64,000 bases of DNA, from IMG/VR virus record IMGVR_UViG_3300036770_007283. One strand, 5' to 3'. Positions 5,271 to 64,000 of the stretch are shown here, piece after piece. This DNA is from a virus. Its lineage: Duplodnaviria; Caudoviricetes. Position 1 is the first letter of the stretch. Each line of letters opens with the position of its first letter. Below the pieces are notes generated by a model. It was given only the letters and a program-made list of their open reading frames with translations. It had not been told where the DNA came from and made no database searches. The position numbers and the translations under genes were made by a program.

Positions 5271-5477
5271 TCAGCCTAGATTGTTGTTTAGGAAGTTCTG
5301 AAGTGCGCGGGCTTGACGAAGGGTTAGCCGAACCTCTACATCGGAGCGATCACCGGGAACGCGGACGACTAGGCAGTTTGATAGCATCTGCTTACGTTTT
5401 GACCCTGTGGTTAGCGCAACTTCTAGACCAGAATAATTCTTTGACTTCTCACTTGATGTTTTTGATGATGTCATCAT
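5271..5477 (-). CDS. hypothetical protein
   Basis: 68-aa ORF, AGGAGG RBS, start overlaps upstream stop. Confidence 0.7.
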   Translation of the reverse strand: MMTSSKTSSEKSKNYSGLEVALTTGSKRKQMLSNCLVVRVPGDRSDVEVRLTLRQARALQNFLNNNLG

Positions 5478-8725: not shown

Positions 8726-10583
8726 TTTTTCTTTTCCTTTGTTTTCTTCTTTTTTGTGATATTGCAGACTTCTTCTCTTTGGCCGTCATTTCTTTGGTAG
8801 TCTGTGGTGTTTTCTTATTAACTCTTTTAGAGGGCCTACACTTAGGATACTTGCCAGGTTTAGCATCAGATCGACCACAGGGAGCATATTTACCAGATTT
8901 ATCCTTTCTAGAAATATCAACCCACTTTTCTTTAAACCAGCGGCCTAATCCACTATCCTTATAAACTGCAGTTTTTAAGAAATCATCTGATAGATATTCG
9001 CTCCATCTTTCTAAGAAGTAATCTATTGGGTTGTGAATCTTTGATGCTTTCTTGTGATGGTGACCATGATTCATATAATCTAGAACGTGACCAATATCAC
9101 TTACCATATCAGATATTAATGATTCTACCCACTCTGGAACTTCTTCTTCTTTGAGGGCATTCATTATATCTAATAGCATTCCAGAAGATTCTATAAGTTC
9201 TGAAAGTTGTGATAGATACATTTCATCGTTAGATTCATTTCTATGCTTCATGTAGTCAATCACATGAGACATATCTCTAGCCACTTGTGAAATAAGCGAC
9301 TCTACCCATTCTGGTATTTCATTTTCGCTAAGTGTTTCTAGGTTATCATAAAGCTCTTCAGAAGACTGTTGCAAATTAGATAACTGTCCTAAAAACATTC
9401 TATCTTCTGCTTTGTTACGCTTCTTTTTAACCTTTGATTTTCGCCATTTACCGCCTCTTTCCTTATACCATCGGCTTGCCCACGCATTGCTGTTGCCAGT
9501 GATTGTTACAGTATGCCCTTGCTTCATAACCCAAGTACCATATTCAGTCTCTGGGCACCAAACATCTCTAAGTCCTTCCACCTCACTCTTCTCTAATTTA
9601 CTACATAAAATAATCCTTCTAGATTTTATGTGGAGAGGCTTACAACTACTGCCCTTAATAATATCGCCCTCAGAAACCATATGTCCAGTTAAAAATCCAG
9701 CAAGCCTAACCGCTTCTAGGTTTGATAAATCTTTTTGACTAAATCCATAACTACAAGAATATTCTGAGTCGTTAGTTTGCCAACCATCACACATTATTGC
9801 GGAATATAAAAATGATTCAAGCTGGCTGTAAGACATAGATAGGACCATCTTTACAGGATCTGTTTTGTATTTTATATATCTATCCAAAGATGAATTTTCA
9901 TATTTTTCATCAAGCTTCGCAGATACAACCAAGAATCCATTTCCGTTTGGCAAACTTTCAACTTCACGAAGTTTGGGCATGTCAGATTTTATATTTAGCA
10001 AAAATTCTTTTAGATTTAAATCACCATATTTTTCAGACCAGTGCTGTATTGATGGAAATATTTCTCTTGCTTTATTGTATGTTAAAATTCCAGACTTTAC
10101 ATTTGAAATTATTGTATGCTTTTCTTTAGAATCTTTTATAAAAGATTCTCTTTTTTCAAACCAACTTCTAGAATATCCTAGAACTTTTTTATGATTAGGT
10201 GTGCATTCTACAGAATAAAGAAGTCCCGGAGATTCAATTTTTATAACCTTTTGACTTTTAAATCTATGCAATGATTTTACTGGTGAATATTTTAAAGAAT
10301 CACTCAAAATATCATAGCATAAAATTTCATCACTAATATTTAATTCACCTGCCCATTTCCACCCATCCCGAGTTAATGCCTGTGAATTATCTTCAGGAAC
10401 ACAATAAGCGCTGGGATATACGTCAAATTTGGCCTTTGCCGCCGCTTTTGCCCGACTCCATAAGGCTTTGTTTGTTGGTACGTTTTTAGATTTGGCAATT
10501 GTGATTATAGTATCTTCAAATAAGTCTAAGTTATTTGAATCATAATTAATACTGGCTAATTTTAATAATCTTTCTTTTGACAT
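8673..10583 (-). CDS. conserved large-phage basic protein (DUF5872-like), intein-containing
   Basis: LWSRAKAAAKAKFDVYPSAY|intein|SNAWASRWYKERGGKW; C-terminal GLGRWFKEKWVDI...PCGR...YPKCRP; two internal ~55-aa repeats (PEWVESLIS). Confidence 0.85.
   Translation of the reverse strand: MSKERLLKLASINYDSNNLDLFEDTIITIAKSKNVPTNKALWSRAKAAAKAKFDVYPSAYCVPEDNSQALTRDGWKWAGELNISDEILCYDILSDSLKYSPVKSLHRFKSQKVIKIESPGLLYSVECTPNHKKVLGYSRSWFEKRESFIKDSKEKHTIISNVKSGILTYNKAREIFPSIQHWSEKYGDLNLKEFLLNIKSDMPKLREVESLPNGNGFLVVSAKLDEKYENSSLDRYIKYKTDPVKMVLSMSYSQLESFLYSAIMCDGWQTNDSEYSCSYGFSQKDLSNLEAVRLAGFLTGHMVSEGDIIKGSSCKPLHIKSRRIILCSKLEKSEVEGLRDVWCPETEYGTWVMKQGHTVTITGNSNAWASRWYKERGGKWRKSKVKKKRNKAEDRMFLGQLSNLQQSSEELYDNLETLSENEIPEWVESLISQVARDMSHVIDYMKHRNESNDEMYLSQLSELIESSGMLLDIMNALKEEEVPEWVESLISDMVSDIGHVLDYMNHGHHHKKASKIHNPIDYFLERWSEYLSDDFLKTAVYKDSGLGRWFKEKWVDISRKDKSGKYAPCGRSDAKPGKYPKCRPSKRVNKKTPQTTKEMTAKEKKSAISQKRRKQRKRKSEGKGRKPIRDSHSKRD
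9492..10403 (-). mobile_element. intein (304 aa) with degenerate LAGLIDADG remnant
   Basis: Starts CVPEDNSQALTRDGW; block B ECTPNH; block F DVWCPETEYGTW; ends TITGN followed by Ser+1. Confidence 0.92.
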
Positions 10584-13133: not shown

Positions 13134-14078
13134 CTATGCTAGTGTTACTTTGTCTTGGTGTGTTTTGTAATATTTGAAAAGGGCCAATTCCTTTTCTTTT
13201 GCTTCAATCATAATATCGACATCAAAACCGTGGGTGTTGATGTATTTGTAAACATAATCAGAATGTGCTTGCGGTTTAATGGTGGGATCTCCCTGTTCAG
13301 CAGACCGGGACTCGGAATAGTGAACTACTGGCTTGATACCATTCCAAGTAGAATAAGCCAAAGCCAAAGCTTCACTTTCTGTCTGGCCACCATCACAAAA
13401 AGTATGATGGTGGTAATCAAAAACAATAGGAATTCCAATTTCTTGATAAATATATTTGTACAATTCTTGTGTAGAATAAAGGGATGCTTTATCATCATTT
13501 TCTACAGTCAGTCTGCTTCTAACAGAACTTGATAAGTTTTTAAAATTCTTGATGAAGTTTTTGCAAGCTTTGGGCTTATCATCATATGCTGCACCAACAT
13601 GAATATTGATTTTGGCATAGGGTGACTGTGGAAGTTGCAAAAGATCAAAAAACTCACCATGAATTTCCAAATCCCTTGCGGTGTTTTTAATAACCGTAGG
13701 ATCTTCGGAAGGTAGTTTGTTAAAGGGTCCGGGGTGTGAGGTAAGCCTTTGGCCGACTTTTTTTGCATAAGCACCAGTTAGTTCAAGCGATTCTCGAATG
13801 GCTCGATAATCTGGCAATGATGCGATATCATAATCTGACGCCCAAGGGAACAAATCAGAGCTAATTCTAAAGAATTTTATACCTTGTTTTTCATTCCATT
13901 GCACAATTTTATTTAAGTCTTTGCAGTTTTCAAGTGCTAATTGTGATGCGTAAACCTTTCCTTTGCTTGCAAAGGTTTTCTTAATCATAGACCGGTTAGT
14001 AGTAATTCTGGAGCTTTTGGGAAGTGAGTCTAGAGTCATATTAATACAAGCATATCCTAGAGCCATATATTCCTCCAT
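13134..14078 (-). CDS. uvsE: UV damage endonuclease UvsE/UVDE
   Basis: LGYACIN, FFRISSDLFP, RLTSHPG, INIHVG, LTVENDD, PIVFDYHHH, VVHYSES, AHSDY, MIEAKEKE. Confidence 0.96.
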   Translation of the reverse strand: MEEYMALGYACINMTLDSLPKSSRITTNRSMIKKTFASKGKVYASQLALENCKDLNKIVQWNEKQGIKFFRISSDLFPWASDYDIASLPDYRAIRESLELTGAYAKKVGQRLTSHPGPFNKLPSEDPTVIKNTARDLEIHGEFFDLLQLPQSPYAKINIHVGAAYDDKPKACKNFIKNFKNLSSSVRSRLTVENDDKASLYSTQELYKYIYQEIGIPIVFDYHHHTFCDGGQTESEALALAYSTWNGIKPVVHYSESRSAEQGDPTIKPQAHSDYVYKYINTHGFDVDIMIEAKEKELALFKYYKTHQDKVTLA

Positions 14079-21613: not shown

Positions 21614-22897
21614 TTAAAACCCAACAAAGCTCTTTGACTTTTCTTTAATATTTTGATTAATCAAAATATCATCGTCTAAGCTCTCTTTTAAAGAATAGAT
21701 TTCTGCTAATGAGTACTGAGTTTTGTTATCATTAATCTCTACACCAATATTTTTGGCAAGCTTTTTAGCATCTTCCCTGTCTAGGGGGCCGAATTCATAT
21801 TTGGAAATCAGCCTTCCTTTTCTAAGCAGAGCTTCGTCAATACAATTGATTTCAGTATTAAAAGTTAAAATAACTTGAATATTAAAAATATCATTTAGAA
21901 TACCATCTGTAATATTTAGAAGTGTAGAAACAACGGCACTTCTAAATCCGCCATTGGAATCTCGCTTAGAGATAATAGACTCTGCATCCTCAATAATAAA
22001 AACAGATTGTTCGTCGCCAAAAGTTTCAACCATAAAGGAGTTAAAGTCTGGTGACTCTAGGCTCTCTAAAACATGCTTGGGAATAAGGACTACTCTTTTA
22101 CCTAGCTCTACCAGCTTAGGAATAATACTTCTAATGTAGTAGGTCTTACCAGTTCCAGGCAGGCCATGAAACATAACAATGCCCTTGCTTCGACTAGCGA
22201 TTCTGTTGATTAGTTTGTTGTGATAATTTTCAAACCCTTCGCCATAATGAAGATCTAAATCGTAAAGCCCTGGATGTTCTAAGTCCACATTTCTTAGAAA
22301 TAGTCCGGTGGGTGATGTAGCAATCATATCAATATGAGAAGCAGACTTAGTATGCTTAAGATAAGTGATAGTCTTTAGATTATTAACAAGTTGACTTACA
22401 ACTGTGTTAGAAGTCTTATAAATTATTGAAACATCAAAGCAAGATAAAATAGTTCCCTGAAAAGTTTCATCATCAGAAATATTGGAGTATTCGCTGGCTG
22501 GAGCGTATTCAATCTGACCTAGAGAAATAAAGATGGACTCATCACCAATCTTTAAAAGAAGCACACACCCAATTGGCAAACCACCCATAGTATGGTTTGA
22601 CATAAGATGATATACAACACCACTTTCTTTTAGGATCTTAATAAATGAATTTAGCTTGACAGGCTGAAAGAATAAAACAGATGGTGAAGAACCAAAATAT
22701 TTTTCAGCACCCAACTTAACCCAATCAGAAAATGAACACTCAACCACACTATGGTTAAAATAATCAACATCCAAGTTCTGGATACCATAGTGATTGTCCA
22801 AGAATAAGAATGGTGAATTAATCTTATCAAATACACTTACTTCGGCGGCATCTCTGTTGCGCTTGGACACCTTCACACCTCGTAATAATCTAGGCAT
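21614..22897 (-). CDS. AAA+ ATPase (BCS1-like)
   Basis: Walker A GLPGTGKT, Walker B FIIEDAE, LLNITDG, IDEALLRKGR. Confidence 0.93.
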   Translation of the reverse strand: MPRLLRGVKVSKRNRDAAEVSVFDKINSPFLFLDNHYGIQNLDVDYFNHSVVECSFSDWVKLGAEKYFGSSPSVLFFQPVKLNSFIKILKESGVVYHLMSNHTMGGLPIGCVLLLKIGDESIFISLGQIEYAPASEYSNISDDETFQGTILSCFDVSIIYKTSNTVVSQLVNNLKTITYLKHTKSASHIDMIATSPTGLFLRNVDLEHPGLYDLDLHYGEGFENYHNKLINRIASRSKGIVMFHGLPGTGKTYYIRSIIPKLVELGKRVVLIPKHVLESLESPDFNSFMVETFGDEQSVFIIEDAESIISKRDSNGGFRSAVVSTLLNITDGILNDIFNIQVILTFNTEINCIDEALLRKGRLISKYEFGPLDREDAKKLAKNIGVEINDNKTQYSLAEIYSLKESLDDDILINQNIKEKSKSFVGF

Positions 22898-24347
22898 CTT
22901 TTACCTTCCTTGTTGGAAATAAAATTACATCACGAATACTAGACTTATTTGTTAATAACATTACTAATCTATCAATTCCAATTCCTTGACCAGCAGTAGG
23001 AGGCATACCGTAAGACAAGGCTCTAATGTAGTCTTGATCAAAATACATAGCCTCATCATCACCATTAGACTTTCTAACAGACTGTAAGTTGAACCTTTCT
23101 GCTTGGTCTACTGGATCGTTTAATTCTGAAAAACCATTGGCAATTTCAAAACCATTGATAAATAACTCAAAACGATCTGTAAGTCTTGGATCATCATCAT
23201 TCCTTCTAGCTAAGGGGCTTAGTTCTGCTGGATATAGAGTAATAAAAGTTGGATTAATTAGATTTGGTTCAACAAAAAGATCAAAGACCTTTTGTTGCAA
23301 ATCACCCAAACTTCCTTCCAGATTGGCAAAACCTTTTTGATTTAGGAATGAAATAATCGAATCTTGTGACCAAGGATCTTGAACACCAGCCTCAATTAAG
23401 GATTGACAAAATGGCAAAGTGGTCCAGCTAGAAAAATCAATACACCTATCTTCATAGGTTAGATTTAAGGAGCCATTAATTTCAAGGACCAGATCATTGA
23501 TAAGTGATGTAGTAAAAGAAATTAAGTCTTGATAAGTAGCGTGGGCTTGATAAAACTCCACCATTGTAAATTCTGGATTATGCTTCTGTGAGATTCCTTC
23601 GTTTCTAAAATTCTTTCCAATCTCAAAGACTCTCTCGAATCCGCCTACGATTAACCTTTTTAGATAAAGCTCTGGAGCAATACGCATATAAAGCTCTGTA
23701 TCAAGAGCATTATGGTGCGTTTGAAATGGTTTTGCAGTTGCCCCGCCCGGAATTGTTTGAAGAATTGGTGTTTCTACTTCAACAAAACTATGATCTTCTA
23801 GGTAGTGACGGATAAACTTGATAATTTTAAAACGTAGCTCAAATGTCTTTCGTGAGTCTTGATTTACAATTAGATCAAGATATCGCATTCTATGTCTTGT
23901 TTCGATATCTGTTAGGCCAGCAACCTTATCCGGCATACCTTGCATACACTTTGAATAAAGAGAAAGCTCCTTACATTCAAAGGTTAATTCTCCGGTTCTG
24001 GTTCGCGTAAAAAAACCTGTTACAAAAATCCAATCGCCCACATCAACCTTCTTCCAGGCATGAAAAGATTCAGCAGTTACCAGATTCTTTTTTACAGATA
24101 GCTGGATTGACTCACCAGAAACATCTGCTCGGGCAAAGCCAAGATTTCCCATTTCATTTTTAAATCTAACTCTTGCAGCAAAAGTAAAAATACCATCTGC
24201 CTCCAAGGTTAGAATAGACTCTTCACGAATTGATCTAATCTGTTCTGCAATATCTTCACAGACCTTCTTTCCAGATGGATATGGATTAATTCCCGATGCT
24301 CTTAACTCTTGGAGCTTCTTTAATTGAGCAGAATCAAATTCAAACAT
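22890..24347 (-). CDS. lysS: lysyl-tRNA synthetase, class II
   Basis: OB domain; RMRYLDLI, FVEVETPILQ, YMRIAPELYLKRL, FRNEGIS..HNPEFT, YGMPPTAGQGIGIDRL. Confidence 0.98.
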   Translation of the reverse strand: MFEFDSAQLKKLQELRASGINPYPSGKKVCEDIAEQIRSIREESILTLEADGIFTFAARVRFKNEMGNLGFARADVSGESIQLSVKKNLVTAESFHAWKKVDVGDWIFVTGFFTRTRTGELTFECKELSLYSKCMQGMPDKVAGLTDIETRHRMRYLDLIVNQDSRKTFELRFKIIKFIRHYLEDHSFVEVETPILQTIPGGATAKPFQTHHNALDTELYMRIAPELYLKRLIVGGFERVFEIGKNFRNEGISQKHNPEFTMVEFYQAHATYQDLISFTTSLINDLVLEINGSLNLTYEDRCIDFSSWTTLPFCQSLIEAGVQDPWSQDSIISFLNQKGFANLEGSLGDLQQKVFDLFVEPNLINPTFITLYPAELSPLARRNDDDPRLTDRFELFINGFEIANGFSELNDPVDQAERFNLQSVRKSNGDDEAMYFDQDYIRALSYGMPPTAGQGIGIDRLVMLLTNKSSIRDVILFPTRKVKDA

Positions 24348-35932: not shown

Positions 35933-38900
35933 TTAAAATCCAACTCCGAACTCACCAGACTTCTGCCTGGCAAGAAGCAGTTTTGCATTTTTATAAGTTT
36001 CTTTTGCCACCTTGATTTGTTGTTGTATAGAGAAATTATCTAAAATCTTATCAATGTATTTTGATACCATATCAGGTGTAACTACGGTTCCAGTCTCAGA
36101 GATCATTCCCTTGATGGTTTCTCGGTCTTCATTTGTTAGATCAGAAATCTCAAAGGCTGCACCATATTTTCCATGAATAAAGCCAAGGATTGTTTCTGCA
36201 TGTTCTTTGTAGTTTACAACGAAACCCCTAATTAAATCTAACCACAGTTCATCAATTCCTTTTCTAATAACGTCACCAGTAGCACCTTCAAGTTTACTTA
36301 CCCACAAATCATAGTCTGATTCTTTTAGGTCTTTAACTGGCAAGAATGTCTCCAAGTAATACTTTAAGATAGACTTAGCATCTTCCTTGGACAATTCACC
36401 GACCACCATAACCTTAGCGAAGCGTCTAAGCATGGGGGTTGGAATTCTTTTTGGATGGTTTGTAGCACCCCAAATTGAAATGCCTGGATAGGCAACAACA
36501 CCATCCATTAGATTCTGGAATTCTAAGGAAAGGTTAATCTTGGATGTTGATTGGTCATCATTTAAGATCATATCAATTTCATCAATTAAAATATATACTG
36601 GACGACCAGAAGACTTATGAAGTTTAATTGCTTCATCAAACAACCTCTTTGGATTCTTTTGTGCTTCACCTAGCCAGCAGGTTAAAAAATCGGATCCTAC
36701 AGCAAAGATTGCAATGCTATCTGGATCTGAAGAAAGTGACCTCAGAACCTCGGTATTATGATTCATCATTCCGTTTGCAGCAAAGCTTTCTGCACCTGGG
36801 ACAACAAGATCATACACTGGATGCTCACCAGTGTTTTCTACTGATACGATCTTTGACCAACGATACTGTGTTGAGCCTAAAGAATCTGTGATCTCCTTTG
36901 ACTTTTGGGATGGATTTAATAAAGAGAGTAGTTGAGCAAGAGTTTCTCGACTCGGCAGAGCCTTACCAGAAGAATAATTCCAAAGCTTCTTGTGAGTAGA
37001 TCTAGGAAGCTCTCCAGATTCTGACTTTAGAATCTTCCATAGATCTTTCGAAATGGGTACTTGATCATAGTTATGGTTAGCCTTGACTTCTAATTCACTA
37101 ACTTTTGCTTGTTTTCTTGGAAGTCTAAATCCAATCTTTTGATAGAAGGACCGTGCATCATCACCATAAATATTAAGTCTCCATGCTTTTTCGGTGTGTC
37201 TAGATACTCTAGAAATAATCCCAAATGAAGTAAGCATTAGTTGAACCTGTCTAATAAGTTTTTCACTATTAGTTCCAAACTCAATTCTTTGACCATAGCT
37301 AGAGCCATCAGAGTCAAACAATCCTGACAAGTATGCTCTCCACGATTCTTTATTTCCCTCCAAAATATACTTTGGAGTTACTTTATTTGCTGCAAGTCTG
37401 CCGCAATCTGCTAGTAATTCTTTGTTTTCTGATGAAAGCTTCATAGCCCTTACAGAATATGCCTGTCCATCATACTTATATACCTTTGGTTCACAAAAGT
37501 GCTTTGAGATTAGTCCAACAACTTTTTCATTAAAGTAATCCCAATCTTGATCTCCAACGGTAATATTCATACTCTTATAAAGACCTTCTTTATTATACTC
37601 TCCATTTCCATCTCCCACGTAATAACCCAAAACATAAGCTTTGTCTGGATCAACTAGGTTTGGTCCGGCTGGAAGTTCTTCTCTTACAATTGCAACGTAA
37701 TCACCTTCTTTAATTTGATCTAATCTCTTCCAGTCTGGACCGGAATCGGTTGCTACAATTACACGGTGCTTTGCAGTTCCTTCTATTTTGAATCCAAAAC
37801 GATCTTCAATCTTAATACAAGGCTGAATACCGGAATCATAAAAGTGGCTTGATTGAGTCATTCCAATAGTAGATCTTACCCCGACCTTTATAGGATGGTA
37901 GCCATCTGAGTCAACTGGTCCTGGCTGTAGTTCTAAAATTGTTTTTAGACCACGATCAGTAAAGATCATAGTATCTCCACGAACGCACTTTCCGCATCCC
38001 TGAGGCCCTACTAACAGGACGTTTGCTTTATCTGTAGACTTAGATGGTGAGGTTGCTAAGAATAGTGGGCTCCATTTCTTTGCCTCATCCATTCCTGAAA
38101 TAAAAGTACGAACTTCATCAAAGCCACTACCCCAAATATTGTTTAAATTTACATGAGGCTTTTCACCGGGAATAATCTCAATAGCACCTGGGGACTCACC
38201 AGTAAACATATTTCCGGTTCCAATTCTACAAACATAGAATGAGTTTTCAAGAACGAAGAAGTTTCTTTCAATTACTTTTAGTTTAAGTACCTCACTTACA
38301 ATGTCCTGCACACTTTCGCCTTCTGCCATTAGGTCAGCAACCTTTTGGATGGACTTGTTTTGATGTTCTAAAGCAAACTTTTCGGTCTTAGAGAAAGCAC
38401 GCTCTGGTGGCCTTTGTGTAATCTGTGATAGATCTAGGCTTTCCACAACGTCAATAAAATCACGATGTACCTTTTTTAGGTCAACAGATAGCAATTTCCA
38501 GACAGGCTCGCCTATAATTTGCTTTAATTTAATAACTAGTCTTAGAACTGAGTCAACAGTCGGCATAGAAATTTCCGACCATCTGATTAGTTGACTTCCT
38601 GGAACTGTAATCCACTTCCAAATTTCATCATTTTTGGCGGCCTCAATCATGGCATTTGCACGATGAATTGTATAAGCGCTCAACTCATCTTTAGAATGAC
38701 CTGATTCAATTTCACCAACCTTATCTAGGTTTTCCCAAATTAAAATAGAAACGTCGGTAAGTGTAGCGGAATTCTGACCCTCATACTTACATAGTACCAT
38801 TCCATTAGAATGGCGGTGTCTTAGACGTTCATAATAATGTTCAAAATTCCTACTCTGGGCTTGAAGATATTGCTCGTATAACCTAGGAATCTTTTCTAAG

Positions 38901-39481
38901 ATTGCCAAGCCCTGCATAAAAGTTGCGCTGGCACCACGATTAATTTGCTGCTCTAAGGCAAGCCCTTTGATGGTATCCTCAGAGCCTTGCTGTAAAGAGT
39001 TAAATAGTGCCTTTACTCTTTCTTCACCCAGCTCTAGCGAAGCACCATTTAGTTGTGTAGACCATTTATTTAATGTTTCATCCAAAGAAACCATTTTAGA
39101 ACTACAAAGCAGTTCAGAGCCTTGAACCAAGGCTGAATAAATATTTACAATGTGTTCATAATGTGAAGAGATGATAACAGAAATATCAATAGGACTAGAG
39201 TTATTGGATACTACATCTTGCTGCTTATCTAAGCCGTCAAAAATCTTCTTTGCTTCCTTGCGTCTTTTGGCATACCCTTCGCCACTTACTTGCTTCCTAA
39301 ACTCCTTAGCTTGCTTAGCGATCTTTTCATATCTATCAAGATTTTCCTTCATCATAGGAAGTAGTTCGCGGATCTGACCAATCTCATCAGCTTTTGTGGC
39401 TCTAATAATATTAGCGTATTTAATTGGGTTGTCTGATGCTGTTTGACTTAGGATAACTGCCGCAAGCTCTTGAGTATCCAT
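35933..39481 (-). CDS. AAA+ ATPase (classical clade) with long helical N-terminus, intein-containing
   Basis: GPQGCGK|intein|T Walker A, ILIDEID Walker B, WGATNHP..I.....RRF. Confidence 0.93.
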   Translation of the reverse strand: MDTQELAAVILSQTASDNPIKYANIIRATKADEIGQIRELLPMMKENLDRYEKIAKQAKEFRKQVSGEGYAKRRKEAKKIFDGLDKQQDVVSNNSSPIDISVIISSHYEHIVNIYSALVQGSELLCSSKMVSLDETLNKWSTQLNGASLELGEERVKALFNSLQQGSEDTIKGLALEQQINRGASATFMQGLAILEKIPRLYEQYLQAQSRNFEHYYERLRHRHSNGMVLCKYEGQNSATLTDVSILIWENLDKVGEIESGHSKDELSAYTIHRANAMIEAAKNDEIWKWITVPGSQLIRWSEISMPTVDSVLRLVIKLKQIIGEPVWKLLSVDLKKVHRDFIDVVESLDLSQITQRPPERAFSKTEKFALEHQNKSIQKVADLMAEGESVQDIVSEVLKLKVIERNFFVLENSFYVCRIGTGNMFTGESPGAIEIIPGEKPHVNLNNIWGSGFDEVRTFISGMDEAKKWSPLFLATSPSKSTDKANVLLVGPQGCGKCVRGDTMIFTDRGLKTILELQPGPVDSDGYHPIKVGVRSTIGMTQSSHFYDSGIQPCIKIEDRFGFKIEGTAKHRVIVATDSGPDWKRLDQIKEGDYVAIVREELPAGPNLVDPDKAYVLGYYVGDGNGEYNKEGLYKSMNITVGDQDWDYFNEKVVGLISKHFCEPKVYKYDGQAYSVRAMKLSSENKELLADCGRLAANKVTPKYILEGNKESWRAYLSGLFDSDGSSYGQRIEFGTNSEKLIRQVQLMLTSFGIISRVSRHTEKAWRLNIYGDDARSFYQKIGFRLPRKQAKVSELEVKANHNYDQVPISKDLWKILKSESGELPRSTHKKLWNYSSGKALPSRETLAQLLSLLNPSQKSKEITDSLGSTQYRWSKIVSVENTGEHPVYDLVVPGAESFAANGMMNHNTEVLRSLSSDPDSIAIFAVGSDFLTCWLGEAQKNPKRLFDEAIKLHKSSGRPVYILIDEIDMILNDDQSTSKINLSLEFQNLMDGVVAYPGISIWGATNHPKRIPTPMLRRFAKVMVVGELSKEDAKSILKYYLETFLPVKDLKESDYDLWVSKLEGATGDVIRKGIDELWLDLIRGFVVNYKEHAETILGFIHGKYGAAFEISDLTNEDRETIKGMISETGTVVTPDMVSKYIDKILDNFSIQQQIKVAKETYKNAKLLLARQKSGEFGVGF
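36755..37987 (-). mobile_element. intein (411 aa) with LAGLIDADG homing endonuclease, inserted in Walker A
   Basis: CVRGDTMIFT...; YVLGYYVGDG, YLSGLFDSDG; VYDLVVPG.ESFAANGMMNHN|T. Confidence 0.97.
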
Positions 39482-41460: not shown

Positions 41461-42234
41461 ATGATACCTGTAAGAACTAGCTTAGTTAATGTAGATTCAA
41501 CTATCCCATCAATCTATAAAGATAAAGCTGGAAAATATATTCCACTTATTAAGGCTGGCGGAAAAATGACCCCTGAGGCAGCAGAGGCTCTTTTAAAACT
41601 TCATCAAGCTGTACTAGCAGAAGGTTCACCACATCGAATTACAGATTGTTTTAGATCTTATGATCAGCAAAAAGCTGCACGAGAAAAATATGATAGATGG
41701 AAAGCAGCAGGATCACCATCCTCACCTCCCTCCTTTAATTCTACCACAATGAAAAAAGATTTCGTGGCTCCACCTGGCTTTTCAAATCACGAAGCTGGTA
41801 TCGCAATTGATGCCGCAGTTTCTCAGTTAGCATTTCCAAACCTACCCGCCAATAAACAGCTAGATAGATATTGGGAGTTAGCCATTCCTCTTGGATGGAC
41901 TCCAATAATTAAAGAAGCTACAGAAGGTGCATCAGAGAGCTGGCACTTTGATTATTGGGGTGAGTGGAGGAGAGTAAAAAATGTCTTTGGATATTCTATT
42001 GCTTCAATGTGCGCCCATCTAGATATCGGGATTGCCTGCTATGGTGATGATCAAGATAAACTTCTACAATCTCAACTACATAGAGTTGGTGTAGATATTG
42101 GTCCTATTGATGGAATGGTCGGAGCCAAAACAAAAGCTGGAGCCACTTATGTTGGGATTAATTCAACTAATCCTGATTGGGATAAGTTATTTAAAATGGA
42201 ATCTGCTCCAGAAGTTATTTGGAAACCTAGCTAA
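41461..42234 (+). CDS. peptidase M15 (VanY-like) endolysin with C-terminal PG-binding motif
   Basis: CFRSYDQQ, APPGFSNHEAGIAID, ESWHFDY; IDGMVGAKT. Confidence 0.88.
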   Translation: MIPVRTSLVNVDSTIPSIYKDKAGKYIPLIKAGGKMTPEAAEALLKLHQAVLAEGSPHRITDCFRSYDQQKAAREKYDRWKAAGSPSSPPSFNSTTMKKDFVAPPGFSNHEAGIAIDAAVSQLAFPNLPANKQLDRYWELAIPLGWTPIIKEATEGASESWHFDYWGEWRRVKNVFGYSIASMCAHLDIGIACYGDDQDKLLQSQLHRVGVDIGPIDGMVGAKTKAGATYVGINSTNPDWDKLFKMESAPEVIWKPS

Positions 42235-50037: not shown

Positions 50038-51138
50038 TTATTTTCTGGTTAGGTAATCATTGCCGACCAATTTATAAGCAATTCGATTTGGAATTGTGAT
50101 TGCATCTCTTCCTGCATAAAAAACTTGTTCACCATCCCAACGTAAAACAATACCTTCTCGGATGTTATCTCCGCTTAGTAAAGTTTTACCTTCTGCCATA
50201 CTGACAATAGCAGATGGAATTCCTTCACCGGCTTGCCAAATGACCCTATCTACAACAGGAACAGTTGGAATAGAAATATTCTGGCAGAAAGCTAATAACT
50301 CCTCCCAAGTCAAATATCTATTCTTATTTGAATCCCAGCAATCAAATGCTACAAATCTCGCCGTATCTTGTCCGTACTTTAAGTCTTGGACTGGACCATA
50401 GACTTCGCCATATAAAGCATACCCAGGATAATCTTTTAATTTATCTGCTAGTCCTTCCCTTTGAGCCACTTCCCACCACAGACCTCCAGTATCTTCACCT
50501 TCCGGTTCCTTCTTGAATAGGGTTCTGGATCTGGCCCAGAATTTTAATTCTCCCTGGTATGGAAGCCAACCATAACAAGCATTTGTACCATGGATCTTTT
50601 CTGTAATCCAGACCTGAGAACCATCAGGGATATACTTCCAGCCTTTACTGAGCGATTCTACATCGTACTTTGCCGTACCCAAAAGGCCATGTGGTCCGCT
50701 GGTTGGACGACCAGATTGAAAACCAAAGCGTCCCCCACTTTGAATCGGAGCAATATATTTTTTTAATTCCAAAAGTGCAGTAACTTCTCGGTTAGTTTTA
50801 AACTTCCATTCATCAGGCAATGGCACCATCAAACCACGACTGATAATGCCGCGAAGCTTTACAGTTTTAATTCTGGCATATCCATCGCTCTTTGCCATCT
50901 TCTGCATGTGGGCAAAGTAAGGATGGGACACTGGCACCATAGGGTCATTAACAGAGTCAATCCAGATACCTTGATCACCCTCTGAGAATTGACCTTTCTT
51001 TACTACGGCAAAGTTTACACCAGACCCATCGGGTGAAACTAGATCTAGTAAATCAGCATTGGGATGCTTAATTACCTTTTGAATAGTAACCACCTCTGCT
51101 AGAGGATTTGCATCGGAATATTCTTCAACAGTAAACAT
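50038..51138 (-). CDS. RNA ligase, Rnl2/DRB0094-like, with N-terminal OB (tRNA-binding-like) domain
   Basis: HPNADLL; TEKIHGTN, YGEVYG, FVAFD, REGIV, YKLV. Confidence 0.92.
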   Translation of the reverse strand: MFTVEEYSDANPLAEVVTIQKVIKHPNADLLDLVSPDGSGVNFAVVKKGQFSEGDQGIWIDSVNDPMVPVSHPYFAHMQKMAKSDGYARIKTVKLRGIISRGLMVPLPDEWKFKTNREVTALLELKKYIAPIQSGGRFGFQSGRPTSGPHGLLGTAKYDVESLSKGWKYIPDGSQVWITEKIHGTNACYGWLPYQGELKFWARSRTLFKKEPEGEDTGGLWWEVAQREGLADKLKDYPGYALYGEVYGPVQDLKYGQDTARFVAFDCWDSNKNRYLTWEELLAFCQNISIPTVPVVDRVIWQAGEGIPSAIVSMAEGKTLLSGDNIREGIVLRWDGEQVFYAGRDAITIPNRIAYKLVGNDYLTRK

Positions 51139-51139
51139 T

Positions 51140-51442
51140 TTATACTCCAAATATATCTAGGTTCCAGATTATTTTTTCCTTGATATCTTCTGGGCAAAGA
51201 TCAAAGAATTCTTCAAAAGTTACTGGCTTATATAGAAATTCAATATCTAGCTCGTTAATATGCCTTAGGTATTTTATTTTAATCCCTCCTTCTATTAGGA
51301 GGTAGACTTGAAACTTTAATTTTTGATCTTTAATATAGAAGTGATTGTAGAATTCACCAGGAGTGATAAAGTCTAAATCTGCTATTTTATCTAGGGCTTC
51401 GTAATATTTCTTGGTGTAGTCATCAGAACTATCATGACTCAT
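51140..51442 (-). CDS. C-terminal-motif paralogue family member
   Basis: TFEEFFDLCPEDIKEKIIWNLDIF. Confidence 0.8.
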   Translation of the reverse strand: MSHDSSDDYTKKYYEALDKIADLDFITPGEFYNHFYIKDQKLKFQVYLLIEGGIKIKYLRHINELDIEFLYKPVTFEEFFDLCPEDIKEKIIWNLDIFGV

Positions 51443-58598: not shown

Positions 58599-58952
58599 TT
58601 AGTAGATATATCCTGACCACTCATCTACAATTTCTACTTCTGGATTTTGCCTACACCATTCGACAAAATTTCTAATGGAATAGAAGCTATTCTGAGCCAA
58701 GAATTGTAGATGAAGAACCCTATCATTATCAATTGAATCAGGGTTTGAATCTAGGTGATCAATGAAAAAATCAGACCAATCAGATTCTGTTGGATGAAAT
58801 CCATCGCTATAAGCTAAATATTTAGCCTTAACACTATCAATATCGGAGGAAGATGCAGTTGAACCATTCATCATAACATTCCAAATATCTTCAGTTACAA
58901 GGCTGATATTAACATCGCCTTGACCGGATGTTTCAATTAGAAATAGTTTCAT
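58599..58952 (-). CDS. hypothetical protein
   Basis: 117-aa ORF, AGGAG RBS. Confidence 0.7.
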   Translation of the reverse strand: MKLFLIETSGQGDVNISLVTEDIWNVMMNGSTASSSDIDSVKAKYLAYSDGFHPTESDWSDFFIDHLDSNPDSIDNDRVLHLQFLAQNSFYSIRNFVEWCRQNPEVEIVDEWSGYIY

Positions 58953-58969
58953 TGGATTTTCTCCTTTTA

Positions 58970-59179
58970 TTATTTTACAATCTGAATATCTGTAATTTCG
59001 TGGTCTACAAATTCAAGGTTTGGGTGAAGTTCTTTTGATTTTTCATAGGCTAATTCACTAACAATATCTTCGAGGGGAATTTTTGTGTTAGAGATTGTGA
59101 ATTGTAGATCAATTTCTACAGAGGCCATATCTTCTTCAGGTTTGCACATATAGGCTTTTACGTTTACCTTTTTTGTCAT
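58970..59179 (-). CDS. hypothetical protein
   Basis: 69-aa ORF, AAGGAG RBS. Confidence 0.7.
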   Translation of the reverse strand: MTKKVNVKAYMCKPEEDMASVEIDLQFTISNTKIPLEDIVSELAYEKSKELHPNLEFVDHEITDIQIVK

Positions 59180-59213
59180 TTTGATTCTCCTTGGCTTGGC
59201 CTCTGCATCCCAT

Positions 59214-59240
59214 GCTCTATATAGTGTGGCCAGTTTTTAT
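59214..59240 (-). promoter_or_regulatory. conserved upstream motif, copy 2
   Basis: ATAAAAACTGGCCACACTATATAGAGC, 35 nt before ATG 59179. Confidence 0.7.
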
Positions 59241-59251
59241 ATCAAATGATT

Positions 59252-59470
59252 TTAGAAGTACCCGGATTCAATCATATATAATATAGCTTTATCAATAGAG
59301 TTATGATATCCTGATGGGCCATATTCAGAATAACATTCATATCCATATTTGAAATCTCCATCATCTAACTTCCATACAAAACCCAATAATTTTTTATCAA
59401 AAAGAATAACCCATCCTTTTCGGGCATGGATTTCGCAAGATATTTTTTTGATATTATCCATTCTCATCAT
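59252..59470 (-). CDS. hypothetical protein
   Basis: 72-aa ORF. Confidence 0.6.
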   Translation of the reverse strand: MMRMDNIKKISCEIHARKGWVILFDKKLLGFVWKLDDGDFKYGYECYSEYGPSGYHNSIDKAILYMIESGYF

Positions 59471-59807
59471 CTCTTAGAAAATGCTCGCCTCGCTCAATAT
59501 AACCAGCAATAATATTTAGAGCTTCAGTAGTTTGGATTTCATCTACATCAGCAAGGGCAGCTTTTTCTCGAAGATATGCAATAACATATGAGCGTTCTTT
59601 TGCAAGTTTAGATTCTAGATTTTTAATTTCTTCTTGGAGTTGAAGAATCTTTTGTTCCATGGAGATTTGACTATCATTTTCTGGAGGTGTTTTGAGGGCG
59701 GTGCTTGATGGATAAACATGATCATTCTCGCAACGATCATCGCCATTAATTCTTCGTTCCCGAGATTTTCCTTTGGCTCCGCAAATGGGGCAATATCCAT
59801 AGCTCAT
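59454..59807 (-). CDS. hypothetical protein with N-terminal Cys motif
   Basis: MSYGYCPICG...C. Confidence 0.7.
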   Translation of the reverse strand: MSYGYCPICGAKGKSRERRINGDDRCENDHVYPSSTALKTPPENDSQISMEQKILQLQEEIKNLESKLAKERSYVIAYLREKAALADVDEIQTTEALNIIAGYIERGEHFLRDDENG

Positions 59808-60094
59808 TTTGAACTCCTGTAAAGGTTTTCCCAAGCGTAAGAATAACAATCTAGAAGAATATCCTTAGGGATGGTTCCGCCGCTATCTTCTAGACTTTTG
59901 ATAATTTTAACCTGGCTCTTTATTGATCGCAGGGGAAACCAGAGATCTGGATATAATCCACAATCCTCTGGAATGGAGATCTTGCAATATAGTGGCTCTA
60001 CTCCTGCGACTAAACCACCCTCATATTCTTTCCAACCAATTTGAATATTTCCTTTTGGATAGAGGCCAAACTCTTTAATTACTTTGACTTTCAT
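59804..60094 (-). CDS. hypothetical protein
   Basis: 96-aa ORF, GGAGG RBS. Confidence 0.7.
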   Translation of the reverse strand: MKVKVIKEFGLYPKGNIQIGWKEYEGGLVAGVEPLYCKISIPEDCGLYPDLWFPLRSIKSQVKIIKSLEDSGGTIPKDILLDCYSYAWENLYRSSK

Positions 60095-60287
60095 TTAGCC
60101 TCCTAATTACAGCGGCATCGGCCTTTAGATTTAGAACAGCATTTCTAATATGTAGAACTGCATGAAGCATTGATTTGTCACTCCAACCAAACAAATCAAC
60201 CAATTCTTCTAACAGATTATCGGCCATTAGTTTTTCGCGCTTTAGTTCTTCAATTTCTTTTAGAAGAACAGCTTCATTCCTTGTCAT
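60075..60287 (-). CDS. hypothetical protein
   Basis: 70-aa ORF. Confidence 0.6.
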   Translation of the reverse strand: MTRNEAVLLKEIEELKREKLMADNLLEELVDLFGWSDKSMLHAVLHIRNAVLNLKADAAVIRRLNESQSN

Positions 60288-60534
60288 GTTCGCTTACCTG
60301 CCAGCAATCCCTTTCGCTATCCCAATGGCGATGATCATATATGGTTAGATAGATGAAGAATATTTTTCTAATTCCGCAGCTAAAATAAAACCCGGCATGA
60401 TCCACCTTGCTTGTGAGCTTGATAGAAAATTCGAAAGGATTATAATCAGCTGATGAACCAAGCTCGATCTGATATTCAAAGGATTTATTTTTGGATATAC
60501 TAAAAGCTTTGTTCATAGTTAATCCTACCACCAC
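60274..60534 (-). CDS. conserved phage hypothetical protein
   Basis: DHAGF...IYDHRHWD. Confidence 0.7.
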   Translation of the reverse strand: MVVGLTMNKAFSISKNKSFEYQIELGSSADYNPFEFSIKLTSKVDHAGFYFSCGIRKIFFIYLTIYDHRHWDSERDCWQVSEHDKE

Positions 60535-61205
60535 GAAGGCAGATTCTTTTTCGAAGATTTGCCTTTTGCATTTTTCACTGATGGCCCATAGTCATCAGTT
60601 ACATAATTGGCACCACCACCTTCATATTCGGAATCTAGATTATATTCATCGTTACCAATAATCTTTCCGCCAGATCCACGCTTCCATTCTACGAGATTTA
60701 ATAGCGAAAATAACTTCTTTGCAATAGGGTGTGATCTAGCATTTTCTACTGCTCGATTATTTTCTTCCACATCCCAGGTGATAGAGTGGCTATCATTGTC
60801 TAATGTAATTGTGGCGTCTGGTAATTCAATGGTTGCACTCTTTGAAGTGGGATAAATCTTAAGGCTAGATTTCTTTGGAGACACTAAGCTATAAGACTTG
60901 TTAGCCTCCATAGATAAAATTAGCTCACGGATATTCTCAAACAATTCTGGATTATTTCCGCTGTACCATCCTGATGAATTATAGGTTCCTTTACAATAGG
61001 ATGCAATAGCAGAGAGAATCTCATTTTGACGATTTGTTCCGCGCTTACCCTTAGCTTTTTCTGATGCTAAATTATATGCTTCGACAGCCTGAGTAAACAA
61101 AGAAGTCTGCGATTCATTCCAGGCTGTGATTAGCTTAGTTCGAAAATTTGGCCATTGATCTTTCGGAATGATGATGGTTCCACGTTCCCAATTGTAACAA
61201 GACAT
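60525..61205 (-). CDS. hypothetical protein
   Basis: 226-aa ORF, AAGGAG RBS. Confidence 0.75.
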   Translation of the reverse strand: MSCYNWERGTIIIPKDQWPNFRTKLITAWNESQTSLFTQAVEAYNLASEKAKGKRGTNRQNEILSAIASYCKGTYNSSGWYSGNNPELFENIRELILSMEANKSYSLVSPKKSSLKIYPTSKSATIELPDATITLDNDSHSITWDVEENNRAVENARSHPIAKKLFSLLNLVEWKRGSGGKIIGNDEYNLDSEYEGGGANYVTDDYGPSVKNAKGKSSKKNLPSWW

Positions 61206-61230
61206 ATGATCTCCTTGCGGTTTTAGTCAC

Positions 61231-61257
61231 GCTCTATATAGTGTGGCCAGTTTTTAT
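61231..61257 (-). promoter_or_regulatory. conserved upstream motif, copy 3
   Basis: ATAAAAACTGGCCACACTATATAGAGC, 26 nt before ATG 61205. Confidence 0.7.
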
Positions 61258-61267
61258 CCTCGTTTAA

Positions 61268-62548
61268 AAAGAAAACTCTCCACTTTAGGGGAGGGATGAA
61301 TTTTTACATTTTTCTACTAATATTGTAAATATAGGTATGCCAACAACTCAGAAAGCATTTAAATTCAGAATCTACCCCACCAAAAATCAGCAAACATTTC
61401 TTGCTAAGCATTTTGGTGCGGTTAGATTTGTTTACAATTTCTTTCTGAATAAGAAAAAAGAAGAATATTTAAATAATAAAAAGACTACAAGCTATTTTGA
61501 TGATGCCAAAGCCCTTACTCAGTTAAAGTCTGAAGAAAAATATTTTTGGTTATATGAAATCAATTCTCAAACCCTGCAGAGTTCACTCAGAAATTTAGAG
61601 TCCTCCTACTTAAATTTCTTCCGTGGTAATGCCAAATTCCCAAAATTTCATTCTAAAAAAAATAAACAATGCTTTAAAATTCCTCAAAACTTCTCTATAG
61701 AAGATGGATTTCTTTATATCCCAAAATTAAAAGAAGGAATCAAAATAATGCTCCACCAGAAGTTGCTAGGGAAAGCAATTTCCTGTCACGTTTCTAAGTC
61801 AACGACAGGCAAATATTTTGTTTCAATCCTTTGCGAGCTAGACCAACCACATTTACCAAGGGTAGATTCTGCAGTGGGAATAGATTTGGGATTGAAAAGT
61901 TTGTTAGTTGAATCAAATGGCAATGTTGCTCCATCTATAAAAACTAATGAAAGGTTCCAAAAGAGAAAGGCTTTTGCCCAAAGGAATCTTGCTAAAAAGA
62001 AAATCGGATCAAATAATAGGGCTAAAAGCAGGGCCATTTTAGCAAAGCATTTTGAAAAAGAGGTTAATAAAAGGACAGATTATCTTCATAAGTTAAGTAG
62101 GCAATTAGTTAACGAAAACCAAGTTATAATTGCTGAAACACTTGCTGTAAAAAACATGATGCAAAATAGTTCCCTAGCCAAAGCTATAGGAGAGGTATCT
62201 TGGGGGGAGCTGCTGAGGCAAATTCAATATAAATCTGAATGGGCAGGGAGAGCCTTTCACAAAATAGATAGGTTTTTCCCATCAAGCAAAGCCTGTAATA
62301 ACTGCAAGTTTGTGGTTGACCATCTGCCTTTAGATGTGAGGAATTGGGATTGTCCTAGTTGCAAAAGTAGCCTGGATAGGGATTTAAATGCAGCAAAAAA
62401 TATATTAGAAAAGGGTCTTGTAGACTTAGGTTTGCAGGACATCTACGGGGTTTCGGAACGAAATCCTAAGTCAAAAACTTCTGGAGGCGATCCCGTTAGG
62501 GATGTCTAAGAAAGAAGAGGCCCTCCCTTAAAAGGGAGGGTAGTTCAC
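61268..62548 (+). mobile_element. IS200/IS605-family TnpB-only (IS1341-like) element
   Basis: Left-end hairpin CTCTCC..GGAGGG after TTTAA; right-end hairpin CCCTCCC-TTAAAA-GGGAGGG followed by TAGTTCAC; no tnpA; ends approximate. Confidence 0.8.
61337..62509 (+). CDS. tnpB: RNA-guided endonuclease TnpB
   Basis: HTH KFRIYP...RFVYN; RuvC GIDLG, AETL, DRDLNAAKNI; zinc finger C..C...C..C. Confidence 0.96.
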   Translation: MPTTQKAFKFRIYPTKNQQTFLAKHFGAVRFVYNFFLNKKKEEYLNNKKTTSYFDDAKALTQLKSEEKYFWLYEINSQTLQSSLRNLESSYLNFFRGNAKFPKFHSKKNKQCFKIPQNFSIEDGFLYIPKLKEGIKIMLHQKLLGKAISCHVSKSTTGKYFVSILCELDQPHLPRVDSAVGIDLGLKSLLVESNGNVAPSIKTNERFQKRKAFAQRNLAKKKIGSNNRAKSRAILAKHFEKEVNKRTDYLHKLSRQLVNENQVIIAETLAVKNMMQNSSLAKAIGEVSWGELLRQIQYKSEWAGRAFHKIDRFFPSSKACNNCKFVVDHLPLDVRNWDCPSCKSSLDRDLNAAKNILEKGLVDLGLQDIYGVSERNPKSKTSGGDPVRDV

Positions 62549-62561
62549 TTGTGGCCTATTA

Positions 62562-63173
62562 TTAGATATTTCTCGAAAGACGAAAGCCGAGGAAGTCGTA
62601 GCGGTTGGACGGCGAGAAGTCGAGGCGGTTGGCGACGCGAGCGTAGGCGGCGGAGGAGGCGCGGCTGCCGCCGCGTATTACTTTATCATTTTTGGCCGAA
62701 GAAAAATCTGAAGATGTCCATTCCCACACATTACCAAGCATATCATATAGTCCATAGCCATTGGACTTTAGTAAACCTACCTCATGTGTTCTTTTATCAC
62801 TGTTTTCTGCCACCCATGCTTCATCTAGGTTTGCCACCCTATCTTCCCAGGGGCCACCTCCTAATGCAGCCCACTCCCATTCCCAATCTGTAGGCAATCT
62901 AAAGGCTTTATCATGCGGTAGATTTAAGATCTGAGATAACTTTTTGGCATATTCAACAGCTTGATCATAGGTGATACTTTCTACCGGTAAATTACCACCT
63001 TTAAATTTAGAAGGATTTTTCCCCATTACCGCAGACCATTCCTTTTGAGTAACTAGGAATTTCTGCATTTGAAATGGTTTAATGATGGCAATCTTATGTT
63101 TTGTATTAGGATCAAGCAGAGGATAAATGTTTTCTGGTGGTTGTGGAATAGTTACCATTTGAGGAGGTTGCAT
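62562..63173 (-). CDS. FGE-sulfatase/C-type-lectin-fold protein, DGR target candidate 1
   Basis: LPTDWEWEWAA, NGYGLYDMLGNVWEW, VIRGGS...GFR; GC-rich variable 3' end. Confidence 0.92.
   Translation of the reverse strand: MQPPQMVTIPQPPENIYPLLDPNTKHKIAIIKPFQMQKFLVTQKEWSAVMGKNPSKFKGGNLPVESITYDQAVEYAKKLSQILNLPHDKAFRLPTDWEWEWAALGGGPWEDRVANLDEAWVAENSDKRTHEVGLLKSNGYGLYDMLGNVWEWTSSDFSSAKNDKVIRGGSRASSAAYARVANRLDFSPSNRYDFLGFRLSRNI
62583..62663 (-). repeat. DGR variable region VR1
   Basis: NNC-codon variation relative to VR2/VR3. Confidence 0.85.
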
Positions 63174-63186
63174 AGTTTGCCTATTA

Positions 63187-63798
63187 TTAAATGGTTTTAC
63201 AAAGACGAAAACCGAGGCCGCCGTTGCGGTCGGACAGCGAGCGGTCGTTGCGGAGGGCGACGCGAGCGAAGGCGGCGTCGCGGCACCAGCTGCCGCCGCG
63301 TATTACTTTATAAATTTTAGCCGAAGAAAAATCTGAAGAGTTCCATTCCCACACATTACCAAGCATATCATATAGTCCATAGCCATTAGGCTTTAGCAAG
63401 CCTACTTCATGTGTTTTATTATCACTGTTTTCTGCCACCCATGCTTCATCTAGGTTTGCCACCCTATCTTCCCAGGGGCCACCTCCTAATGCAGCCCACT
63501 CCCATTCCCAATCTGTAGGCAATCTAAAGGCTTTATCATGCGGTAGATTTAAGATCTGAGATAGCTTTTGAGCATATTCCACAGCTTCATCATAGGTAAT
63601 ATTTTCCACAGGTAAATCATCACCCTTGAATTTAGAGGGATTTTTCCCCATTACCGCAGACCATTCCTTTTGAGTAACTAGGAATTTCTGCATTTGAAAT
63701 GGTTTAATAAAGGCAATCTTGTGTTCTGTATTAGGATCAAGCAGAGGATAAATGTTTTCTGGTGGTTGGGGAATAGTTAACATTTGAGGAGGTTGCAT
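63187..63798 (-). CDS. FGE-sulfatase/C-type-lectin-fold protein, DGR target candidate 2
   Basis: Near-identical to copy 1 except the 3' variable region; 625-bp period. Confidence 0.92.
   Translation of the reverse strand: MQPPQMLTIPQPPENIYPLLDPNTEHKIAFIKPFQMQKFLVTQKEWSAVMGKNPSKFKGDDLPVENITYDEAVEYAQKLSQILNLPHDKAFRLPTDWEWEWAALGGGPWEDRVANLDEAWVAENSDNKTHEVGLLKPNGYGLYDMLGNVWEWNSSDFSSAKIYKVIRGGSWCRDAAFARVALRNDRSLSDRNGGLGFRLCKTI
63208..63288 (-). repeat. DGR variable region VR2
   Basis: NNC-codon variation. Confidence 0.85.
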
Positions 63799-63811
63799 GG
63801 TTTACCTATTA

Positions 63812-64000
63812 TTAAATGTTTTTACAAAGACGAAAGCCGAGGAAGCTGGCATGGTAGGAAGGCGAGCAGCTGCTGCGGAAGGCGATGCGAGCGTCGATCA
63901 GGCGACATCCCCAACTGCCGCCGCGTATTACTTTATTATTATCCGAAGAATATTCGGAAGATGTCCATTCCCACACATTACCAAGGATATCATGTAGCCC
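63812..64000 (-). CDS. FGE/C-type-lectin-fold protein, DGR target candidate 3 (partial, 3' end only)
   Basis: GLHDILGNVWEW...VIRGGSWGCRLIDARIAFRSSCSPSYHASFLGFRLCKNI*. Confidence 0.9.
   Translation of the reverse strand, partial: GLHDILGNVWEWTSSEYSSDNNKVIRGGSWGCRLIDARIAFRSSCSPSYHASFLGFRLCKNI
63833..63913 (-). repeat. DGR variable region VR3 (more diverged)
   Basis: Same frame and length as VR1/2; several non-C third positions. Confidence 0.7.

Follow-up and report, generated by a model that had tools for sequence, protein, structure and literature searches.

Four tandem C-type-lectin/FGE-fold genes of a giant phage carry variable blocks with the signature of diversity-generating retroelement mutagenesis

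We describe a tandem array of four paralogous genes, predicted to encode small C-type-lectin-fold binders, at the end of a stretch of giant phage DNA. The stretch, referred to here as the window, is 64,000 nt long. Near its 3' end each gene (g1 to g4) has a GC-rich block that varies between copies in the manner expected of a diversity-generating retroelement (DGR). We put the probability that the blocks were written by DGR retrohoming at about 0.7. Both the retrohoming itself and the sequence of its template are what we infer from the pattern of substitutions set out below.

All four genes are on the minus strand. The last gene in the array, g1 (62562-63173), was recognised by ORF calling, Pfam and alignment as a stand-alone FGE-sulfatase/C-type-lectin-fold gene of 203 aa. 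Its neighbour, g2 (63187-63798), encodes a 203-residue paralogue that is 93.7% identical to g1 outside the block. Only the 3' part of g3 (63812-64000) falls within the window. A JGI metagenome contig of 6706 bp (L001; L003 is its reverse) is 100% identical to positions 58924-64000 and runs 1629 bp further. The extension supplies the remainder of g3 (L001 4889-5497), the whole of g4 (L001 5511-6137) and then two small unrelated ORFs. The g4 product is 208 amino acids long and its block has a five-codon insertion. Thus, the tandem array of at least three genes proposed in the initial annotation is real but larger, with four minus-strand genes of 203 to 208 amino acids on the extended contig. The proposed period also stands; the stop codons of g1, g2 and g3 are spaced by 625 bp. 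That the copies are near-identical outside the variable region was an overstatement, since the scaffolds differ by 6.3% (g1 compared with g2) to approximately 11%. Tandem Repeats Finder did not report the array in the window because the period exceeds the 500-bp limit of the program.

Variants of one hypervariable gene, drawn from a population, could in principle be stacked by an assembler to give a false tandem array. Assemblies do break at the array, and Wu et al. voiced the same concern for an array of eight targets (PMC5758913). However, our copies differ by 6-11% along the whole scaffold, beyond the block alone. Furthermore, the junctions are the same, at 99.9-100% identity, in the contig of the window and in JGI contigs that come from two samples. 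The second sample's contig (L004) has the g3-g2-g1 junctions as well; over 1512 nt, 2 differences were seen, each in the loop of a hairpin outside the genes. Given matching junctions in contigs of two samples, we consider an assembly artefact extremely improbable.

Records place the g1 and g2 proteins on a 252,699-bp contig; the window is its final 64 kb, and its end falls within the array. They also place the g4 protein on a JGI contig of 98,242 bp, which is probably the continuation of the larger one. Hence, the phage genome may be approximately 350 kb in length and split at the array repeat. The window has a phage-like composition of 36% GC, and the array is surrounded by small ORFs of early type and is distant from the structural module. 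The window also encodes a lysozyme, DNA-repair enzymes and small ORFs in long runs. Accessory genes typical of giant phages are an Fpg/Nei glycosylase (176-1033), a GH46 chitosanase-like protein (1349-2134), an S49 peptidase (3979-4887), UvdE (13134-14078), a lysyl-tRNA synthetase (22890-24347), an AAA protein split by a LAGLIDADG intein (35933-39481), a VanY-type peptidase (41461-42234) and an RNA ligase (50038-51150). For the 226-aa gene neighbouring the array, no IMG/VR relative was found. In related phages from freshwater metagenomes (L044-L047) the locus has one gene copy and lacks the TnpB element; the flanking genes are 95% identical.

The variable blocks extend from the codons CGC GGC GGC (RGG) through CGT CTT (after LGF). 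VR1 (62577-62675, minus strand) and VR2 (63202-63300, minus strand) are both 99 nt in length. The initial annotation had described a GC-rich 3' block of 81 nt; the block is present but longer, and the VR1 and VR2 strings quoted there match the sequence exactly. Third-position GC in the block is 91% for g1 (29% in its scaffold) and 88% for g2 (31%), and these differences are highly significant (Fisher p 5e-11 and 2e-9 respectively). The values for g4 are 76% (30% in the scaffold) and for g3, where VR3 occupies 63827-63925 (minus strand), 75% (27%). In the block of the single-copy relative the figure is 66%. In the order g1, g2, g4, g3, relative, third-position GC therefore forms a decay series. 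VR3 also has 5 adenines at invariant-class sites. Judged by these sequence features, the g3 and g4 blocks look older or written from another template, in keeping with an earlier suggestion that VR3 is inactive or derives from another template repeat (TR). The Arg/Gly/Ala-rich protein motif does not dictate synonymous composition, which argues that the block DNA differs in origin from the rest of the gene.

We compared g1 and g2 codon by codon. Across the 25 aligned codons of the block there were 10, 10 and 1 differences at codon positions 1, 2 and 3. Across the 169 codons of the scaffold there were 9, 5 and 18. The ratio of differences at positions 1 and 2 to those at position 3 is therefore 20:1 for the block and 14:18 for the scaffold (Fisher p 1e-4). 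Among changed codons, 13 are nonsynonymous and none synonymous in the block, compared with 14 and 15 in the scaffold (Fisher p 1e-3). VR1 contains 12 NNC codons, and in g1 as in g2 each of the 12 variable codons has the form NNC. The pattern of NNC-codon variation noted previously is thus borne out. The exceptions to the adenine pattern are TGG/CGC, CCG/CTG and GGC/GGT. The conserved Trp of the GGSW motif is replaced by Arg in g1 (VR1), a change that adenine mutagenesis cannot produce.

The distribution of adenine points the same way. Adenine occupies 1 of 75 invariant-class sites in the block, compared with 34% of the scaffold (p ~1e-12, with site classes defined from the same data), and 7-8 of the 24 variable-class sites. 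The sole adenine outside the 24 variable sites is in an AGC codon, and g4 has TGC at this place. Every adenine in a DGR template is mutable; a purge of adenine from invariant sites is therefore expected of such a template. Variation at template-adenine sites was assessed by proxy, with paralogues compared to each other rather than to a TR, and conformed to the DGR pattern.

Blocks of this type might instead reflect diversifying selection on a binding tip, together with patches acquired from GC-rich homologues by ordinary recombination. The RGGSW...LGFR motif, with its many Arg, Gly and Ala residues, occurs throughout the FGE-sulfatase family. Tails mildly enriched in GC, with no reverse transcriptase (RT), are also seen in other phage homologues. 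However, amino acid composition cannot give 88-91% third-position GC, or variable codons that end in C. It also leaves the zero synonymous changes and the adenine purge at invariant sites unaccounted for. In addition, the bounds of the patch are those of a DGR variable region, and the flanks are AT-rich and phage-like. We consider an origin by selection and ordinary recombination improbable, and favour retrohoming by a DGR.

As a positive control, our scan for TR/VR pairs picked out an authentic DGR on two fragments from IMG/VR (L037 and L038). This DGR has one template and two variable regions, adjoined by a PF00078 reverse transcriptase. The template translates as RGGSW-NDN-AR-N-...-NHN-...-N-R-NDN-LGFR. 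Its Asn (AAC) places correspond to the variable codons of g1 and g2: three follow GGSW, a single one stands behind the Ala/Arg pair that comes next, three more form a run, a single one precedes Arg and a final three in a row precede LGFR. The variable codons of VR4, and of the single-copy orthologue, likewise fall at AAC places of the control template. Because the Asn codons and variable places match, the AAC-rich template architecture proposed in the initial annotation is reasonable.

We searched for the machinery that such a template would require. No RT was detected in the 64-kb window by scanning all six frames for YxDD, or by Pfam searches with the 20 ORFs of at least 231 aa plus tnpB. 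Similarly, a scan for repeat pairs with mismatches falling on adenines found no template-like copy in the window. These results agree with the earlier view that the TR and RT are not in the window. The place suggested to look first for an RT, Avd and AAC-rich TR was beyond position 64,000. The sequence covered there, the 1.7-kb extension of L001 and 2.4 kb from a relative, contains small ORFs only and neither an RT nor a TR. DGR cassettes usually sit downstream of their target; downstream of g1 are the TnpB element and then small early-type genes only. Using the block's non-adenine scaffold as a TR, we obtained zero true matches in viral, metagenome and species-genome collections. The matches to this pattern were chance only, in genomes of 61-77% GC (metagenome and species genomes), and the 185,579 species genomes yielded no host template. 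Elsewhere in the window there is one GC island of at least 58% over 80 nt (5291-5385; 0.60 GC). It contains AAC codons but was ruled out as a TR candidate, having no likeness to the blocks. Ten neighbouring small ORFs had no Pfam match to Avd. No GC-rich hairpin of the IMH type lies directly 3' of VR2-4 or of the relative's variable region, and that beside g1 is within the TnpB element. Avd/HRDC and IMH/hairpin elements are not universal in DGRs. Hence, the absence of these accessory parts lowers the likelihood of DGR membership but does not exclude it.

The element beside g1 is a TnpB-only IS200/IS605-type element (61258-62548, plus strand), in which tnpB (61337-62509) encodes 390 aa. It was identified using Pfam, and its bounds were set by comparing L044 with L003. 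The insertion point follows GGCCACAA and is 14 nt beyond the g1 stop codon, and the relatives L044 and L047 have an intact 80-nt spacer at this site. The element is not part of the DGR signature. Homologues of this TnpB, 58-65% identical, are found on contigs of 245-470 kb, which possibly represent other giant phages. The last four codons of g1 (62565-62576) are TCG AGA AAT ATC; g2, g4 and the relative have TGT AAA ACC ATT, a difference at 6 of 12 nt. The sequence just past the g1 stop is conserved. The divergent 3' patch of g1 abuts the right end of the TnpB element, where the guide would be templated, and divergence of the g1 tail from the paralogous tails might avoid self-targeting by TnpB. 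Over 1.5 kb, the only difference between samples (L004 compared with L003) is a TT/AA swap at 62530-62531, in the loop of a CCCTCCC...GGGAGGG hairpin at the right end of the element.

If the blocks do have a DGR origin, the odds are roughly even between machinery elsewhere in the same giant genome (a little under half) and machinery that was lost, or acts in trans from the host or a co-resident element (a little over half). The first case, in its active form, would place RT, Avd and TR in the rest of the genome, either in the first 189 kb of the 252.7-kb contig or on the 98-kb contig, and g1 and g2 would still be rewritten. Their blocks are almost free of AT drift despite a genome of 36% GC, which counts against complete fossilisation. 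With the contig broken in the array and the g4 protein also recorded on the contig of 98,242 bp, a large part of the genome lies outside the window. Phage DGRs with non-adjacent targets are known, although for nearly all such targets the RT gene is no more than 50 kb away (PMC5758913). Set against an active phage-encoded DGR, the 64 kb on the VR-proximal side contain neither RT nor TR, and nor do the 1.7-2.4 kb past the far end of the array. Moreover, the consensus sequences of VR1-3 are identical in the two samples, which are apparently from one study and are represented by assembled contigs. We therefore regard ongoing rewriting by the phage itself as possible but doubtful.

The locus is present in three subsurface runs (X1-X3). 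Variability was looked up in four sequencing runs using assembled Logan contigs, which fragment at repeats. In one freshwater run (X4, from 2024) a 134-nt contig over VR1 (62563-62696) had 17 differences; contigs covering tnpB and the g1 scaffold differed by 1-2%. The VR1 contig could be strain-level turnover of the variable region or a different paralogue. A search with the C-terminal 99 residues for fragmentary VR variants returned nothing above 53% identity.

A second account is that the targets are orphans, their blocks written in the past either by a DGR that was later lost or by a host or co-infecting element acting in trans. The genes would now be a fixed repertoire of four binders, subject to ordinary mutation and unequal recombination. 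The single-copy orthologue is informative here. Its block contains several non-C third positions and has 2 residue changes among three variants that differ by 7-8% overall; on this comparison the block appears frozen. Both g3 and g4 resemble the orthologue in showing drift, and the graded decay of third-position GC fits the same account. Between g1 and g2 there are 4 differences at non-adenine sites of the block, approximately the scaffold rate. The last writing may thus be as old as the duplication and, on this sequence evidence, could be other than recent. Among IMG/VR records with homologous small FGE genes, 8 of 10 have no RT anywhere, and three of these are rated 100% complete. One IMG/VR record (L029; 96,316 bp, 28% GC, rated complete) has a small FGE-fold gene at 9836-10498 with an AAC/AAT-rich tail, RGGSWCNNAENCRSAIRNSNSPDYRSSNFGFRL. 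The GC content of this tail is 0.53, compared with 0.34 upstream, and PF00078 has no match in the whole record. Taken together with the other records, L029 indicates that RT-less phages with such genes recur. In a distant AT-rich relative (L041) the tail is 38% GC. Conversely, the lack of a host template among the species genomes, and the fresh appearance of the g1 and g2 blocks under strong AT pressure, tell against orphan targets. We give this account somewhat less than an even chance.

We next consider the proteins encoded by the array. The products of g1 and g2 match PF03781 (FGE-sulfatase) with scores of 117.6 and 119.6 bits (cut-off 23.3) and E-values of ~1e-34, or 9.9e-34 for g1. A structural model of g2 has a mean pLDDT of 88.8 (48-sequence alignment). 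Its nearest PDB entry is TvpA from Treponema denticola (2Y3C; sequence E-value 5.5e-23, fold TMq 0.79), which outranks PvdO and true formylglycine-generating enzymes as a solved match. The C-type-lectin/FGE fold assigned initially is supported by both the Pfam matches and the position of TvpA as top solved structure. The variable region of TvpA aligns with residues 170-200 of g2. Hence, according to the model and this alignment, the variable region is at the C-type-lectin fold's C-terminal ligand-binding face.

Catalytic FGE has a copper-binding pair of catalytic cysteines in the C-terminal segment. An identity of this kind was rejected for the array; no cysteine follows the RGG motif in g1, the single cysteine in the g2 block is at a variable codon, and the copies differ. 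With the cysteine pair absent, the proteins are better viewed as binders than as enzymes, and no formylglycine-generating chemistry is expected. Binding is accordingly their predicted function. No export signal is evident, the N-terminus having no hydrophobic stretch. There is also no fibre or trimerisation domain, as the initial annotation had said of these 203-aa proteins.

In our preferred reading, DGR mutagenic retrohoming would have written the C-terminal tips of four small, soluble C-type-lectin/FGE-fold binders encoded by paralogous genes. A cDNA copied from an adenine-bearing template repeat would replace the 99-nt block. Substitution would be random at the template adenines, which would number 24 in approximately 12 AAC codons. 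The g1 and g2 blocks would be those recently written. The blocks of g3, g4 and the single-copy orthologue would be older or differently templated and would be drifting towards the AT-rich composition of the genome. The RT and template would lie, or have lain, outside the 64-kb window and not adjacent to the array. A bolder proposal is that the phage maintains, in an early and non-structural part of its genome, a small germline-like set of soluble binders with the lectin fold. The tips would be rewritten in trans by a host or co-resident retroelement during infection, or by a phage DGR acting across more than 64 kb on intracellular targets absent from the virion, for example to bind variable host defence proteins. 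We think this unlikely.

Most phage DGR targets reported to date are tail proteins that bind receptors and are encoded near the RT. The features that set the array apart are its giant-phage setting, the early-gene neighbourhood, the lack of a virion or export domain and an RT that is distant or absent. Such a setting, with early genes in a genome of 250 kb or more, neither an export nor a fibre domain and no RT close by, would point to intracellular hypervariable binders or to use of a retroelement across genomes. The contrast between one copy and four, together with blocks that range from fresh to decayed, offers a natural time series for the birth, amplification and abandonment of DGR targets. 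Even with its RT and TR out of view, the array is a clean, if incomplete, example of a known phenomenon.

Tandem paralogous targets, such as the eight-target array of Stenotrophomonas, and minimal targets consisting of the C-type-lectin domain only have already been catalogued (Wu et al. 2018, PMC5758913). Such cassettes have their RT and TR next to the targets; the array has neither in 64 kb on one side or ~2 kb on the other. The DGR of T. denticola is similar in having paralogous targets, several per template, some of which are far from the RT. However, TvpA (2Y3C) is a bacterial surface lipoprotein of ~290 aa, whereas the array proteins belong to a giant phage, have 203 aa and show no export signal. 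The array genes also differ from those of TvpA in being arranged in tandem, and no RT or TR was located in the 64-kb window and flank. Mtd of Bordetella phage BPP-1 is, like the predicted products of the array, a phage-borne C-type-lectin-fold protein diversified at AAC codons. Mtd forms a trimeric tail-fibre tip and is encoded beside avd-TR-brt, whereas the array genes have no trimerisation or fibre domain and are located among small early-type ORFs. A further parallel is L029, in which a phage FGE-fold gene has a VR-like tail and the record contains no RT. The array differs from it in having four copies, two of them with very clean blocks.
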